Assembly: GCA_963809325.1 (NCBI GenBank)
Contig: CAWEIZ010000002.1
Span: 807,130 to 871,129, forward strand
Length of the DNA stretch: 64,000 bases
Direction of reading: 5' to 3'
Source: an uncultured Actinomycetes bacterium
Lineage (GTDB): Bacteria; Actinomycetota; Thermoleophilia; Gaiellales; JAICJC01
Shown here: piece by piece, positions 1,033 to 57,210 of the stretch
Layout: each line of letters begins with the position of its first letter
Numbering within the stretch: position 1 is the stretch's first letter
Translations under genes and position numbers: made by a program
Notes under the pieces: generated by a model
What the model was told of the DNA's origin: nothing
Seen by the model: the letters and a program-made list of their open reading frames with translations, nothing else
Databases searched by the model: none

Positions 1033-1745
1033 CGCAGCGCCCCCAGAGCCTGCTCGCGGGCGGGGTGGCCGCCCCCGCCGCTTCCGTCGAGCTCGCACGC
1101 GACCCGGCCCGGCCGTGCCGTCAGGACAACCACGCGGTCGCACAGGCGCAGCGCCTCGTCGAGGTCGTGCGTGACCAGGAGGGCCGTTCTCGGCCGGGCC
1201 CCCATGGCGGCCGCGAGCCACTCCTGCATCTCGGTGCGGGTGATCGCGTCGAGGGCGCCGAACGGCTCGTCGAGGAGCAGCACGGGCTTCTCGGCGAGCA
1301 GGGTGCGCGCGAACGCGACCCGCTGGCGCATGCCGCCCGAGAGCTCCCAGGAGCGGGCCCGCTCGAACCCCTCGAGGCCGAGTTCGGCGAAGAGCTCCGC
1401 AGCCCGCCCGCGCGCCTCGCGCCGCTCGACGCCGGCGTTCTCGAGCGGGAGGGAGGCGTTTCCGAGGGCGTCGCGCCAGGGCATCAGGAGGTCGGACTGC
1501 GGCATCAGCGCGCAGCGCTCGAGCCGCCCGCGCTCGTCGCCGGCGCCGCCGACCGAGATCGCCCCGCGGTCGGGGCTCTCGAGGCCGGCGACCATGCGAA
1601 GCAGCGTCGACTTCCCGCACCCGCTCCGCCCCACGAGCCCGACCGTCTCGTCCGAGCCGGCGCGGAAGGCCACCCCGTCCAGCGCCACGACGGGCCCGTA
1701 GCTCTTCGTCACGTCGGTGACGACGATCTCGCTCACTGCGTGCAT
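1029..1745 (-). CDS. ABC transporter ATP-binding protein (SsuB/TauB/ThiZ-like)
   Basis: Walker A GRSGCGKST, signature LSGGMRQR, Walker B LLLDEPF, H-loop LVTHD; alternative GTG start at 1736. Confidence 0.92.
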   Translation of the reverse strand: MHAVSEIVVTDVTKSYGPVVALDGVAFRAGSDETVGLVGRSGCGKSTLLRMVAGLESPDRGAISVGGAGDERGRLERCALMPQSDLLMPWRDALGNASLPLENAGVERREARGRAAELFAELGLEGFERARSWELSGGMRQRVAFARTLLAEKPVLLLDEPFGALDAITRTEMQEWLAAAMGARPRTALLVTHDLDEALRLCDRVVVLTARPGRVACELDGSGGGGHPAREQALGALR

Positions 1746-1832
1746 CCCTTCGCTGGCATTACCCAGATCAGGTTCGCGGGTCGGCGCCTCTGCGGCACCC
1801 TCTCAGCCCTGCGGGCTCCCCGGCAAACGCTC
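1741..1832 (-). ncRNA. TPP riboswitch (THI element)
   Basis: The minus strand reads GGGGAGCCCGCAGGGCTGAGAGGGTG...GACCCGCGAACCTGATCTGGGTAATGCCAGCGAAGGGA, matching the conserved GCTGAGA and CCTGAT...AATGCCAGCG.AGG cores. It lies directly upstream of a THI5-type ABC operon. Confidence 0.93.
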
Positions 1833-2826: not shown

Positions 2827-3031
2827 TAGATGAACGATTCCACGCCGCCGCGCGCCTGGACATCCGGACTGTTATCGGTACGCGGCAGTGGCGGGGCTGC
2901 GGCTGCGAACCGTCGCATCGCTGCGTCCTCGGGAGCGTCGATATTTCAACCAATATCGACGCTCCCTGCGTCCTTGCGCTACTCGGTTCTCGCCGCCCAG
3001 GACATCACGGCGGCGTAGAACCGATCATCTA
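2827..3031 (+). mobile_element. TIR-bounded structured repeat, copy A (minimal form, about 205 bp; MITE-like)
   Basis: TA-GATGAACGATTCCACGCCGCC ... GGCGGCGTAGAACCGATCATC-TA; perfect 15-bp central hairpin at 2931-2966; shares blocks GCGCGCCTGGAC, GGGGCTGCGGCTGCGAACCGTCGCATC, TGCGTCCTTGCGCTACTCGGTTCTCGCC and GGACATCACG with four other loci. Confidence 0.75.
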
Positions 3032-15393: not shown

Positions 15394-15713
15394 TAGATGA
15401 GTGATTCCACGTCCCCGCGCGCCTGGACGCACGTCGGTGGTTAGTAGCCGCGTTCTGGCGGGGCTGCGGCTGCGAACCGTCGCATCGCGGCGTCCTCGGT
15501 CGCGCCGATATTTCAACCAATATCGCCCGGCGGCGCCTGCGTAATCGCAGGCGCCTTCCGAACCCTGTCAAGCCGTTCCGGCTTGACAGATCCTGCGTCC
15601 TTGCGCTACTCGGTTCTCGCCCGTTCGCGACCTGCTGGTAGCAGATCGCTCACGACCGCCGCAAGCCAAGGCTTGCGGCTAGGACATCACGGCGACGTGG
15701 AATCACTCATCTA
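15394..15713 (+). mobile_element. TIR-bounded structured repeat, copy B (320 bp; MITE-like)
   Basis: Perfect 20-bp inverted repeat TAGATGAGTGATTCCACGTC / GACGTGGAATCACTCATCTA; internal hairpin cassettes Y (15532-15589) and X (15622-15679). Confidence 0.82.
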
Positions 15714-45214: not shown

Positions 45215-45220
45215 CGCCTG

Positions 45221-45419
45221 GACGATTGATTCGATGCTGCCGTGATGTCCTGGGCGGCGAGAACCGAGTCCGCGAGGACGCAGGGAGCGTCGATATTGGT
45301 TGAAATATCGGCGCGACCGAGGACGCCGCGAGACGACGGTTCGCAACCGCAGCCCACCACAAACGCGCCACCGACCACCGTTGGACGTCCAGGCGCGCGG
45401 GGGCGTGGAATCACTCGAC
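45221..45419 (-). mobile_element. TIR-bounded structured repeat, copy C (about 199 bp, inverted, degenerate or mosaic)
   Basis: The minus strand has GAGTGATTCCACGCCCCCGCGCGCCTGGAC...GCGAACCGTCG...CGATATTTCAACCAATATCGACGCTCCCTGCGTCCT...CTCGGTTCTCGCCGCCCAGGACATCACGG; no TA flanks. Confidence 0.7.
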
Positions 45420-45471
45420 CGGGGCGTTCGCGCCCGGCAAAAAGCGGGCCACCTGATCACCGGTTTGCGGT

Positions 45472-48559: not shown

Positions 48560-49138
48560 GTGGGCAAGGTCTTCGACGAGATCGACGACAGGCTGACCGG
48601 CTGGATCGCGGCCCAGCAGCTCTTCTTCGTCGCCACGGCGCCGTCGGGCGACGGCGGCCACGTGAACTGCTCGCCGAAGGGGCCGATCGAGAGCCTGCGG
48701 GTGCTCGGCCCACGCCGGGTCGCCTACCTCGACCTGGTCGGATCGGGCGCCGAGACGATCGCGCACCTGCGCCAGAACGGCCGGATCGTGATCATGCTGT
48801 GCGCCTTCGTCGGGCCTCCGCGCATCCTGCGGCTGTACGGCCGGGGGCGGATCGTGACGGCCGCCGATGCGGAGTTCGACGAGCTCGCCGGCTGGTTCCA
48901 GATCCGCGACGCCTATGCGACCGAGCCGGTGAAGCGCTCAGTCGTCGTCGTGGACGTCGATCGCGTCGCCGACTCGTGCGGCTACGGCGTGCCGCTCATG
49001 GAGCCCGTGGGCGACCGCCCGCAGCAGGCGCTCTGGGTCGAGCGCAAGCTCGCGCAGGGCGGTCCGGACGCGATCGCGGCCTACCGGGCCGAGCACAACG
49101 TCCGCTCGATCGACGGCCTGCCCGCGCTGGACGGCTAG
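48560..49138 (+). CDS. Pyridoxamine 5'-phosphate oxidase family protein
   Basis: FFVATAP, VNCSPKG, YLDLVGSGAETIAHL, MLCAF.GPPRILRLYG, SCGYGVP. Confidence 0.87.
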   Translation: MGKVFDEIDDRLTGWIAAQQLFFVATAPSGDGGHVNCSPKGPIESLRVLGPRRVAYLDLVGSGAETIAHLRQNGRIVIMLCAFVGPPRILRLYGRGRIVTAADAEFDELAGWFQIRDAYATEPVKRSVVVVDVDRVADSCGYGVPLMEPVGDRPQQALWVERKLAQGGPDAIAAYRAEHNVRSIDGLPALDG

Positions 49139-49513
49139 ATCGGTGATTCCCAATTCCCGCGCGCCTGGACGTACCGCTGCTCGTGCAGGCCCGTCGCGGT
49201 GGGGCTGCGGCTGCGAACCGTCGCATCCACGGGGGACCTGCTGGATAGCAGGTCTTCCCGTGACCGCTGCAAGGCGTTCGCCTTGCAGCTTGTCCTCGGT
49301 CGCGCCGATATTCACCAATGTCGGCCGGCGGCGCCTGCGTAATCGCAGGCGCCTTCCGAACCCTGTCAAGCCGTTCCGGCTTGACAGGTCCTGCGTCCTT
49401 GCGCTGCTTGGTTCGCAGCCCGCTCGCGACCTGCTGAGTAGCAGGTCGCTCACGACCGCCGCAAGCCCAGGGCTTGCGGCTGGGACATCACGGAATTGGG
49501 AATCAACGATCTA
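49136..49513 (+). mobile_element. TIR-bounded structured repeat, copy D (378 bp, longest; two X cassettes)
   Basis: CTAGATCGGTGATTCCCAATTCC / GGAATTGGGAATCAACGATCTAG (22/23 match); the left TA belongs to the upstream TAG stop and the right TA abuts the downstream GTG start. Confidence 0.82.
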
Positions 49514-50491
49514 GTGCCCGAGACGACGCTCTACGGGCCCGGGCAGTCGCGGTTCGCCCGCCTCCTCGAGCGGCGCGAGGAGCGGCGGCCGGACGAGACC
49601 TCACGGGCGCTCCGCGGCAAGCTCCTGACCGGGATCAGGGGGCGGGTGATCGAGATCGGCTGCGGAGGCGGCCCCGCCTTCGAGCACTACCCGCCGGAGG
49701 TGGAGCGAGTGCTCGCCGTGGAGCCCGACCCTGTCGCCCGCGCGGCGGCCGCAGAGAGCGCGGCCGCGGCGGCGGCTCCGATCGACGTGGTCGAGGGGTT
49801 CGCCGAGCGCCTGCCGGCGGGAGACGGCATGTTCGACGCCGTCGTCTGCATCTGGGTGCTGTGCAGCGTGCCCGACGTGGCGGCGGCGCTGCGCGAGTTC
49901 CGCCGGGTGCTCGTGCCGGGCGGCGAGCTGCGCGTATACGAGCACGTCCGCTCGCCCCACGCCCCGTTCCGCGCCGTCCAGCACGCGGTCGACTCGCTCT
50001 TCTGGACGCGGTCGCTCGGCGGCTGCGAGACGACGCGCGACACCGAGGCCGCGATCCGCGCCGCGGGCTTCGAGTTCGACCGGATCGAGCGCGGCTTCCA
50101 GTCCTCCTCGCTGCTCACGATCACCGCCGCGCCGTACATCCTCGGCACGGCGCGAAAATTGGGGTCTGACCCCGTTCCTGCATGCCCAAATGCGGTTGGT
50201 GCGGCGAACCACTGGGGCCAGGCCCCGGACGGGGTTTGGCCCCATGGGGTCTGCGGCCGGCACGGCTGCGCAACACCGGGGTCTGACCCCGATGTTGCGC
50301 CGGTTCGGGCGCCTGAGGCCCGGAGCCGAGCTCCGGGCCTCGCACAGACGATGGCGTGCACACGTGGGGGGCTCGTGGGGGGAGCCTGCTCCCCCCACGG
50401 ATCTATTCGTGGGCGGCGAGGAACTCGCGGAGCATCGGCATGTAGACCTCCGGATGCTCGGCGAAGCACAGGTGCGAGCCGTCAGGGATGA
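49514..50491 (+). CDS. Class I SAM-dependent methyltransferase; recognisable fold ends near 50150 and the ORF runs on through a repeat cluster
   Basis: VIEIGCGGG, VEPDP, LPAGDGMFDAVV, VLCSVPD, RRVLVPGGEL..YEHVR, PYILGTAR. Confidence 0.8.
   Translation: MPETTLYGPGQSRFARLLERREERRPDETSRALRGKLLTGIRGRVIEIGCGGGPAFEHYPPEVERVLAVEPDPVARAAAAESAAAAAAPIDVVEGFAERLPAGDGMFDAVVCIWVLCSVPDVAAALREFRRVLVPGGELRVYEHVRSPHAPFRAVQHAVDSLFWTRSLGGCETTRDTEAAIRAAGFEFDRIERGFQSSSLLTITAAPYILGTARKLGSDPVPACPNAVGAANHWGQAPDGVWPHGVCGRHGCATPGSDPDVAPVRAPEARSRAPGLAQTMACTRGGLVGGACSPHGSIRGRRGTRGASACRPPDARRSTGASRQG
50151..50399. repeat. Cluster of REP-like palindromes and hairpins
   Basis: GGGGTCTGACCCC at 50161 and 50278; variants GGGGCCAGGCCCC 50214 and GGGGTTTGGCCCC 50231; perfect 12-bp stems at 50315-50341 and 50374-50399. 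Confidence 0.75.
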
Positions 50492-56820: not shown

Positions 56821-56854
56821 AAGGCTTTGGACGTTAGCAACGTGGGCGCCCTGA

Positions 56855-57172
56855 GATGGGTGATTCCCAATTCCCGCGCGCCTGGACGTCCGGATGTGGA
56901 CTGGGATTTGGCTCTGGTGGGGCTGCGGCTGCGAACCGTCGCATCGCTGCGTCCTCGGTCGGGCCGATATTTCAACCAATATCGCCCGGCGGCGCCTGCG
57001 TCATCGCAGGCGCCTTCCGAACCCTGTCAAGCCGTTCCGACTTGACAGGTCCTGCGTCCTTGCGCTGCTCGGTTCTCGCCCATGAGCGACCTGCTGGATA
57101 GCAGGTCGCTCATGACCGCGGCAAGCCGTCGGCTTGCCGCTGGAACATCACGCGAATTGGGAATCAACCATC
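56855..57172 (+). mobile_element. TIR-bounded structured repeat, copy E (318 bp)
   Basis: GATGGGTGATTCCCAATTC / GAATTGGGAATCAACCATC (18/19 match); cassettes Y and X present; no TA flanks. Confidence 0.8.
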
Positions 57173-57210
57173 GCGGCGCCATCCGCGGTCACTGCCAGAA
57201 TGGAACGTCC

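Follow-up and report, generated by a model that had tools for sequence, protein, structure and literature searches.

A dispersed, non-coding repeat of about 205 bp was analysed in a stretch of 64,000 nucleotides (the window) from an uncultured Actinomycetes bacterium of the order Gaiellales (contig CAWEIZ010000002.1, positions 807,130 to 871,129). The window contains five copies of it, designated A to E, and the differences in length among them are due only to blocks of 57-64 nt, each of which folds into two hairpins and occupies a fixed junction of an otherwise conserved scaffold. The scaffold is mobile and has a fold supported by covariation, its modules were never found on their own, and module content disagrees with scaffold ancestry. 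The explanation favoured here, with a probability of roughly 55%, is a MITE-like repeat (MITE, miniature inverted-repeat transposable element), the optional modules of which are exchanged between scaffold copies by homology-guided exchange.

Copies of the repeat in the window and in related genomes

In the preliminary description of this DNA, which was based on the letters of the window, hairpin cassettes named X and Y had been proposed to give the element a modular size ladder of about 200, 320 and 380 bp. In a five-way alignment the copies were collinear except for three blocks. The first block (64 nt after ...GAACCGTCGCATC) is present in D only (49228-49291), the second (62 nt after the central hairpin) is the former cassette Y and the third (57-62 nt before GGACATCACGG) the former X, the latter two being present in B, D and E. 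In every long form the outer stem is preserved, as had been claimed for cassettes lying inside it without disrupting it. The coordinates first proposed were right within 1-3 nt: X is located in B and E at the positions given in Table 1 and in D at 49422-49480, with an X-like block elsewhere in D (49228-49289) and none in A and C, while Y is found only at its three tabulated positions. The hairpin pattern of X gave 3 matches against 0.04 expected from shuffled sequence and that of Y 3 against 0.00, both in excess of chance. Open reading frames across D are mechanical only. Motifs are quoted on the + strand; as read, the motif orientation is + for A, B, D and E and - for C.

Genome contigs, one genome per species, were matched with an exact 21-mer of the conserved core, and loci are referred to by L-numbers. 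The 21-mer was found at at least 97 places, nearly all of them in metagenome-assembled genomes (MAGs) of the MFD series that carry the labels Gaiellales, Thermoleophilia or "uncultured Actinomycetes". Four loci, L056 (Pilimelia), L063 (Spirosoma), L066 (Vicinamibacteria) and L097 (Propionicimonas), were discarded as chance pattern matches with no element present. Profile and landmark searches over the window plus the matched loci, together 818 kb, yielded about 100 copies in more than 20 Gaiellales/Thermoleophilia MAGs. The copies are dispersed, non-coding and 203-376 bp long, with a density of about 5 per 64 kb in the window. Landmark-to-landmark lengths cluster in four classes, namely 157-166 nt (65 copies), 188-224 nt (12 copies), 276-279 nt (4 copies) and 335 nt (1 copy, D); the size ladder is thus a property of the family and not a peculiarity of the window.

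No Rfam (15) family matched the element at gathering or E-value thresholds, the best scores of D being 21 bits for Atu_C3 (gathering 100) and 13 bits for P17 (gathering 45), and literature searches on Gaiellales repeats returned nothing describing such an element. As far as could be found, the family is undescribed, and it is very abundant in Gaiellales/Thermoleophilia, which are common, mostly uncultured soil actinobacteria.

Modules and slots

X, Y and the D-only block, here called X', are paralogues, all of them forms of the same 57-64-nt two-hairpin module. The 35 modules extracted share one plan: hairpin 1 of 10-15 bp with the apex CTGC[G/T]-NNRT-[C/A]GCAG, a short linker ending in (G)ACC, and hairpin 2 of 9-11 bp with a free loop and a stem containing GCAAGSC or GTCAAGSC. 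The main differences between X and Y concern the apex-closing pair and the stem sequence. The module hairpins are 93-94% Watson-Crick paired, and where modules diverge in the outer parts of the stems, the changes are compensatory. Both cassettes of the preliminary description are therefore present, as variants of one module type rather than as distinct units. Likewise, the two blocks of D taken for X exist; since X' is only 66% identical to X of the same copy, it is not a copy-paste product of it.

Modules occupy three fixed junctions of the scaffold (sites 1 to 3) and a fourth in a divergent subfamily. Site 1 holds Y-like modules in L023, L050, L071 and L080 and X-like modules in D, L016, L085 and L098; at site 3 a Y-like module was found in L051 and X-like ones in many copies, so that both apex types occur at more than one site; L016 combines X' at site 1 with X at site 3. 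Seven occupancy patterns were observed (none, 1, 3, 1+3, 2+3, 1+2+3, and, in L081, a tandem pair of modules ahead of the central hairpin), in agreement with the earlier view of the element as modular and combinatorial. The cassettes had been described as insertions. They do lie within the scaffold, and they replace a 5-nt linker rather than being purely inserted (GCKGC at site 1, GCCCA at site 3; joints read in public runs); in D the joints between short and long forms are 49227->49292 at site 1 and 49420->49483 at site 3, with no duplication.

The divergent subfamily is represented by L093:2830-3115 (-), which has other terminal repeats (CTAGTGATGTGACCGG... / CTAGTGATGTGACCGGCAACGTT...), a diverged core 1 (GGCGGCTGCAAACCG) and neither CCTGG nor the variable region of other copies. 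It carries one two-hairpin module upstream of core 1, the fourth slot, and one at site 1. L098 shares its diverged core 1 and has a module at site 1.

Module content and scaffold ancestry

The scaffold of D is 95.2% identical to that of the module-less copy L041, located at another locus, against 80-84% to any module-bearing copy, and likewise the scaffolds most similar to those of B and E carry no modules. For the modules the similarities run differently: X' of D is 97.1% identical to X' of L085, which lies in the same MAG as L041 (D and L085 scaffolds 81-82%), and 88.4% identical to the site-1 module of L016; Y of D is 95.5% identical to Y of B (scaffolds 79.7%). Because modules 95-97% alike are carried by scaffolds about 80% alike, module content is decoupled from scaffold ancestry, and the comparison of sequences supports the view that it changes faster than the scaffold and independently of it. 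A further trace was found at site 2 of D. The central-hairpin loop beside Y (CACCAAT) is of the B/E type (CAACCAAT) and not of the L041 type (CCCGAT), and after Y the sequence of D reverts to the L041 type (GCTGCTTGGTTCGCA); judged from the alignment, this patch looks like a conversion tract.

The incongruence could also have arisen by loss, if the ancestral element was long with all slots filled and the short forms were produced by recurrent, precise module deletion. Hairpins are prone to deletion owing to palindrome instability, and degraded copies do occur: mini forms of about 130 nt in which core 1 is joined straight to the right end (...GAACCGTCGCCCAGGACATC...; L059:3853-3984 and L064:24-153), half a module in L003, modules abutting deleted cores in L025 and L086, and truncated copies L101/L103. 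The mini form L059 (132 nt) is orthologous to the full-length short copy L013:4587-4791, hence the deletion occurred in place; additionally, L052 contains a remnant at a site orthologous to L068. However, 64 of the 80 copies that could be classified are short and have the same canonical junctions, the scaffolds nearest to B, D and E lack modules, L041 would have to have undergone three exact and independent deletions while its scaffold diverged by 5%, and apex types shared across sites require duplication or transfer between sites in any case. Loss as the general explanation is therefore considered possible though rather unlikely.

Insertion sites and ends of the scaffold

At least six pairs of filled and empty orthologous sites were identified by flank comparisons between MAGs (L029/L055, L041/L043, L044/L060, L085/L018, L087/L008 and L081/L046). 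The clearest is L055, ...gagtCTAGAgg... with a single CTAG, compared with ...gagtCTAG-element-CTAGgg... in L029. An empty allele of the D locus was found in peat/soil metagenome contigs (X1, a DNA run, and X19) as ...GACG-AG-TAG-TGCCC, with the joint 49133->49512 and flanks showing 0-5 differences from the window. The near-identical flanks identify D as a recent, strain-level insertion, and since D already contains three modules, module-bearing elements evidently transpose.

The ends follow the consensus CT-AGATGRTTGA...TCAAYCATCT-AG, where the hyphens mark the element boundaries, AGATG is conserved in 85-97%, the flanking T in 67-75% and the flanking C in about 61%; CTAG is present at both ends in 35 of 98 copies, and it is read at both ends of D (CT 49135-49136, AG 49513-49514). 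Among 92 distinct copies the terminal inverted repeat measures 23-26 bp, with a conserved terminal AGATGRTTGA and a covarying inner part. Additional matches to the terminal repeat in the 818 kb were solo fragments only (L084:7575, L020:4678). Small, dispersed, bounded by terminal inverted repeats and TA/CTAG ends, and missing from empty sites, the scaffold resembles a MITE in these respects.

The termini cTAGaTGAtTGA supply stop codons in three frames when R = A, as (c)TAGaTGAtTGA, inward from either end (in D at 49136-49147 and 49502-49514). The terminal TAG is the stop of 38 of the 82 gene ends that face an element, the two TGAs are that of 13, and 3 more end a short way deeper inside; these counts, like those of gene orientation below, derive from a crude GC3-based gene caller and are indicative. 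The element TAG serves as stop for the gene ending at 49138 (D), the stop of which (49136-49138) overlaps the first bases of the left arm, and for the minus-strand gene ending at 3029 (A).

L086:1224-1420 and L006:3587-3798 have unlike inner terminal repeats (gatcggtaagtcc and gaccccacatcg) and the same right flank in two MAGs, L006 having about 1 kb extra on the left side relative to L086. The shared flank suggests either an insertion hot spot or the replacement of one copy by another.

Fold and strand of the scaffold

An alignment of 71 short copies (A2) was used for the analysis of the fold. RNAalifold recovered the outer stem and the central hairpin; it proposed a local hairpin in core 1 and missed helices P3 and P4, and a manual model was tested by pair counting instead. 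The helices P2 (CCTGG/CCAGG), P3 (GAACCG/CGGTTC with an extension) and P4 (GCNNNGC/GCNNNGC) were added by eye. P4 covaries as GCCTCGC/GCGAGGC, GCGGGGC/GCCCCGC, GCCTGGC/GCCAGGC and GTCTCGC/GCGAGAC. In the complete model 89.2% of the cells are paired, compared with 80.7% for shuffled alignments (0 of 500 reached the observed value) and 34-42% for slid partners, and compensatory changes on both sides were found in 37 of 58 pairs (23.4 expected). Minimum-free-energy folds of A and D (z-scores of -7.4 to -13) reproduce the model, with each module folding as two independent hairpins. The multiloop closed by P4 contains sites 1 and 2, and site 3 is at a bulge between the P3 extension and P2. The modules leave the outer stem undisturbed because these slots are at a multiloop or bulge and the modules fold as separate hairpins. 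The internal cores are more conserved than the ends of the element and than the neighbouring genes.

The strand on which the fold is maintained was deduced from mismatches in the helices, which as read comprise 240 A·C and 32 G·T in the 71 short copies, with a bias of the same sign in five helices, P1, P2, P4 and P5 among them; as the mismatches are partly inherited within subfamilies, independent events are fewer than these totals. Some are nearly fixed, among them C36·A206 (55 of the 71 copies) and, in the central hairpin type met most often (GCGCCCATA...TATGAACGC), its C·A pairs. Substitutions in unpaired conserved columns (C>T 21, G>A 9) and in paired columns (G>A 70, T>C 52, C>T 42, A>G 38) were counted, and a G>A mutational bias was ruled out as the cause: unpaired columns have no surplus of G>A, so the asymmetry comes from selection for pairing. 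Since A·C as read is G·U on the other strand, the selected single strand is the reverse complement, i.e. the - strand of the window for A, B, D and E. Copy A also folds better on the reverse strand (-117.6 compared with -107.7 kcal/mol). These data suggest that the fold is selected on the strand opposite to that read, either as RNA or as strand-specific single-stranded DNA.

A variable region of about 35 nt between CCTGGACG and core 1 (e.g. 49172-49200; A2 columns 46-82) differs among subfamilies. As read it contains 44% G, 25% T and 7% A, which on the inferred functional strand makes it rich in C and A (C 44%, A 25%, U 7%), and there it is unpaired; its G-runs could form a quadruplex on the other strand.

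With such a fold, the repeat might be regarded not as a transposon but as a multi-copy family of structured non-coding RNA genes with variable arms, the inverted ends being a closing helix. Covariation in four helices, the strand-specific wobble signature and the conservation of the internal cores would fit, and words of the element occur in at least 18 soil metatranscriptome assemblies (X8, X16, X19 and 15 or more others). The contig depth of core 1 in RNA runs is about 430x compared with 4-12x for the flanking genes, an excess that is a hint of transcription only, as the contigs are unstranded, many copies are collapsed, DNA is possibly included and a DNA run gave 161x compared with 12x. On the other hand, an RNA gene family accounts poorly for presence and absence at orthologous sites with TA/CTAG at both ends, for about five copies per 64 kb and for their random orientation to genes, and neither a promoter or terminator consensus nor an Rfam family was found. 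Moreover, the RNA features are compatible with a MITE, since transcribed ERIC, BOX and Correia elements behave alike (PMC2229807, PMC3049150). RNA genes without transposition are thus an unlikely explanation.

Mobility of the modules

In the preliminary description, cassette X had been proposed to be a mobile mini-element that homes into the scaffold by its own mechanism, giving nested repeats, and the same may be asked of Y. Such an element should have copies outside the scaffold, ends of its own and either orientation, none of which was observed. A structural pattern detected 27 modules in 818 kb, all within scaffolds and co-oriented; an X-only pattern applied to metagenome contigs returned 8 loci, 8 of 8 in a scaffold or truncated scaffold; and a module HMM at maximum sensitivity added just one further place, inside the divergent scaffold of L093. 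In total, 0 of 37 modules (27 + 8 + 2) were free-standing and all had the orientation of the scaffold, where the search around scaffolds is a biased sample and the 64-kb window and the X-only scan are unbiased. Neither terminal repeats of their own nor target duplications were seen around the modules, the replaced 5-nt linker is at odds with clean insertion, the site-specific subtype X' is kept at site 1 across MAGs, and the loop polymorphism transferred together with Y at site 2 fits gene conversion. A self-mobile cassette would agree with D and L041 being three modules apart at 95% scaffold identity, with modules 95-97% alike in scaffolds 80% alike, with the same apex types at sites 1, 2 and 3, with the precise and reproducible junctions, and with the fourth site of the divergent subfamily; in the balance it is regarded as improbable. 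The description had conceded that X would lose this standing if it never left one fixed position and the extra copy in D were a one-off duplication or artefact. X was never found outside the scaffold; within it, X is not restricted to one position, and a 97% identical site-1 module in another MAG speaks against a one-off event.

That the three-module form of D, especially X', is an assembly artefact or private duplication is scarcely credible: short-read assemblies do break at repeats and D is not covered in full by any one public contig, but two independent MAGs have X' at this very site (L085 97%, L016 88%), a contig from an RNA run matches 49242-49313 without differences, and a loose end reads into X'.

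Comparison with known repeats

The comparison with pneumococcal BOX elements made at the outset is apt, and Croucher et al. 2011 (PMC3049150) argue likewise for boxB. BOX elements (boxA-boxB(n)-boxC) range from 67 to 637 bp, and for one pneumococcal genome 17 box modules standing alone were reported (PMC3049150). Both systems are small intergenic repeats with mutually pairing ends and a wide size range, are transcribed with their neighbours (presumably so for the Gaiellales repeat), and contain an internal module that folds alone and whose absence or multiplication leaves the remainder undisturbed. The likeness is analogy only: the Gaiellales repeat has no resemblance to streptococcal boxA, boxB or boxC, belongs to another phylum (actinobacteria with 72% G+C), fills three or four fixed slots with one module type whereas boxB repeats in tandem at one, yielded 0 of 37 lone modules, and has conserved internal cores and long-range helices in its scaffold.

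With ERIC/IRU, Correia/NEMIS, RUP and other MITEs the element shares a size of 100-200+ bp, terminal inverted repeats, TA termini, intergenic location and size variants. Length variants of ERIC with internal deletions and with insertions of about 70 bp at specific sites were reportedly described by Wilson and Sharp in 2006. Transcripts of ERIC/IRU, Correia/NEMIS and RUP fold into long stem-loops, and RUP carries stop codons in all frames (Delihas 2008, PMC2229807). Unlike in these MITEs, the inner terminal repeat of the Gaiellales element covaries between copies instead of being fixed, conservation is highest internally, the sequence is high in G+C and not A+T-rich, no partner insertion sequence was identified, and the slots are filled by paralogous two-hairpin units without lone modules.

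The expansion segments of rRNA and the peripheral domains of RNase P, tmRNA and group I/II introns are similarly self-contained helices added at junctions or loops of an unaltered core, with covariation in core and additions. They belong to single-copy, essential, vertically inherited genes, whereas the present repeat is dispersed, mobile and high-copy, with arms that are exchanged. The likeness is one of working rather than of membership.

Proposed mechanism and function

In the MITE-like explanation preferred here, the scaffold inserts as DNA into TA, preferably CTAG, very often in the TAG stop codon of a gene, and would be moved by a transposase supplied in trans. In a genome with 72% G+C, TAG stops would be among the few TA/CTAG targets, and insertion would regenerate the stop. 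The single-stranded form adopts the outer stem of 23-26 bp, two long-range helices between core 1 and core 2, and the central hairpin, a module being an optional accessory arm at the multiloop (sites 1 and 2) or the bulge (site 3) that leaves core fold and ends untouched. Modules would be passed between copies, or removed, by ectopic gene conversion or template switching, generating the combinatorial size ladder, with occasional deletion in place alongside. What we infer from these data is how modules are exchanged, that a transposase acts in trans and that the functional form is RNA.

Several observations weigh against this explanation or parts of it. No transposase and no long element with matching ends was found in 818 kb, and the length of the target duplication (0, 2 or 4 bp) is indistinguishable at CTAG targets. 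At sites 1 and 3 the flanks are invariant, which makes the ends of conversion tracts invisible; the case for gene conversion, as read from the sequences, draws on the incongruence and one hitch-hiking polymorphism. As the modules are more conserved than the scaffolds, the incongruence could come in part from stronger selection on modules together with repeated loss. Regarding an RNA form, the module hairpins lack the strand asymmetry (10 G·T, 8 A·C), the depth excess of core 1 has the limits named above, and a scan of D for sigma-70 promoters and intrinsic terminators found none, nor was a consensus found. The orientation to neighbouring genes is unbiased (18 convergent, 16 divergent, 16 + 13 tandem). 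A cis-regulatory RNA, for which a bias toward neighbouring genes would be expected, was rejected as no bias was seen.

On the simplest reading, the inserted element would then be transcribed together with the gene and form a stable structure at its end, which is what has been proposed for ERIC, BOX and Correia (PMC2229807, PMC3049150). The modules could provide protein-binding sites, extra stability or termination signals. The strand-specific wobble signature and the three-frame stops given to two-thirds of the facing genes point to a function beyond selfish spread. A bolder proposal, which we hold to be quite unlikely, is that the repeat is a mobile gene for a structured reverse-strand RNA. 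Such an RNA would combine a conserved core and a variable, single-stranded loop rich in C and A with two-hairpin arms that can be exchanged, bind protein or ligand and are shuffled by a dedicated RNA or single-stranded DNA mechanism. If true, an uncultured order of actinobacteria would possess a system of RNA scaffolds that is combinatorial and spreads by itself, beyond decaying selfish DNA, and a system for studying the gain and exchange of peripheral RNA domains. As a structured element built from modules, the repeat is a natural case of unusual clarity, in which one unit fits three or four junctions of a covariation-supported fold and module content is independent of scaffold ancestry. For practical purposes, the element breaks assemblies and creates spurious open reading frames, and should be masked or modelled in the annotation of these MAGs.

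Feature coordinates and further observations

Table 1. Copies of the repeat in the window and parts of copy D. The strand is that of the inferred functional single strand.
Feature	Position	Strand	Description
Copy A	2828-3030	-	Short form (~200 bp), no modules
Copy B	15395-15712	-	~320 bp; Y 15528-15589 (site 2), X 15623-15679 (site 3)
Copy C	about 45220-45420	+	~200 bp short form, opposite orientation, termini eroded
Copy D	49137-49512	-	376 bp, AGATC...GATCT; modules X' + Y + X
D left arm	49137-49162	.	Outer stem / terminal inverted repeat; pairs with right arm
D core 1	49201-49227	.	GGGGCTGCGGCTGCGAACCGTCGCATC; nearly invariant across family
D module X', site 1	49228-49291	.	Hairpin 1 cacggggGACCTGCTggatAGCAGGTCttcccgtg, ACC linker, hairpin 2 GCTGCAAGGCGttcGCCTTGCAGC
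D central hairpin P5	49296-49325	.	Loop CACCAAT, B/E type, not L041 type
D module Y, site 2	49326-49387	.	GGCGCCTGCGtaatCGCAGGCGCC ... CTGTCAAGCCGttcCGGCTTGACAG; two-hairpin plan as X
D core 2	49389-49420	.	TCCTGCGTCCTTGCGCTGCTTGGTTCGCAGCC; 3' partner of core 1 in P3 + P4
D module X, site 3	49421-49482	.	Takes the place of the short-form linker GCCCA
D right arm	49487-49512	.	Outer stem / terminal inverted repeat; pairs with left arm
Copy E	56854-57173	-	~320 bp; Y 56987-57048 (site 2), X 57081-57140 (site 3)

In core 1 of D, the segments GAACCG and GCATCGC are those that pair with core 2 in P3 and P4. Copy C lies 6 nt downstream of the stop of a neighbouring gene (45214), presumably greA, and its ends are eroded, with GGTCGAG... 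for AGATGAG... and ...CGTCC for ...CATCT; it is probably an old, immobile copy. The central hairpin of copy A (2935-2976) is a perfect 15-bp palindrome (GGGAGCGTCGATAT...ATATCGACGCTCCC). The usual central hairpin (GGTCGCGCCGATAT...) has three mismatches, at all of which the 5' arm of copy A is corrected to match the 3' arm, which looks like hairpin-templated repair or selection. The sole Rfam family in the window is a TPP riboswitch (RF00059) at 1727-1832 (-), which is full length and scores 61 bits compared with a gathering score of 54.3.

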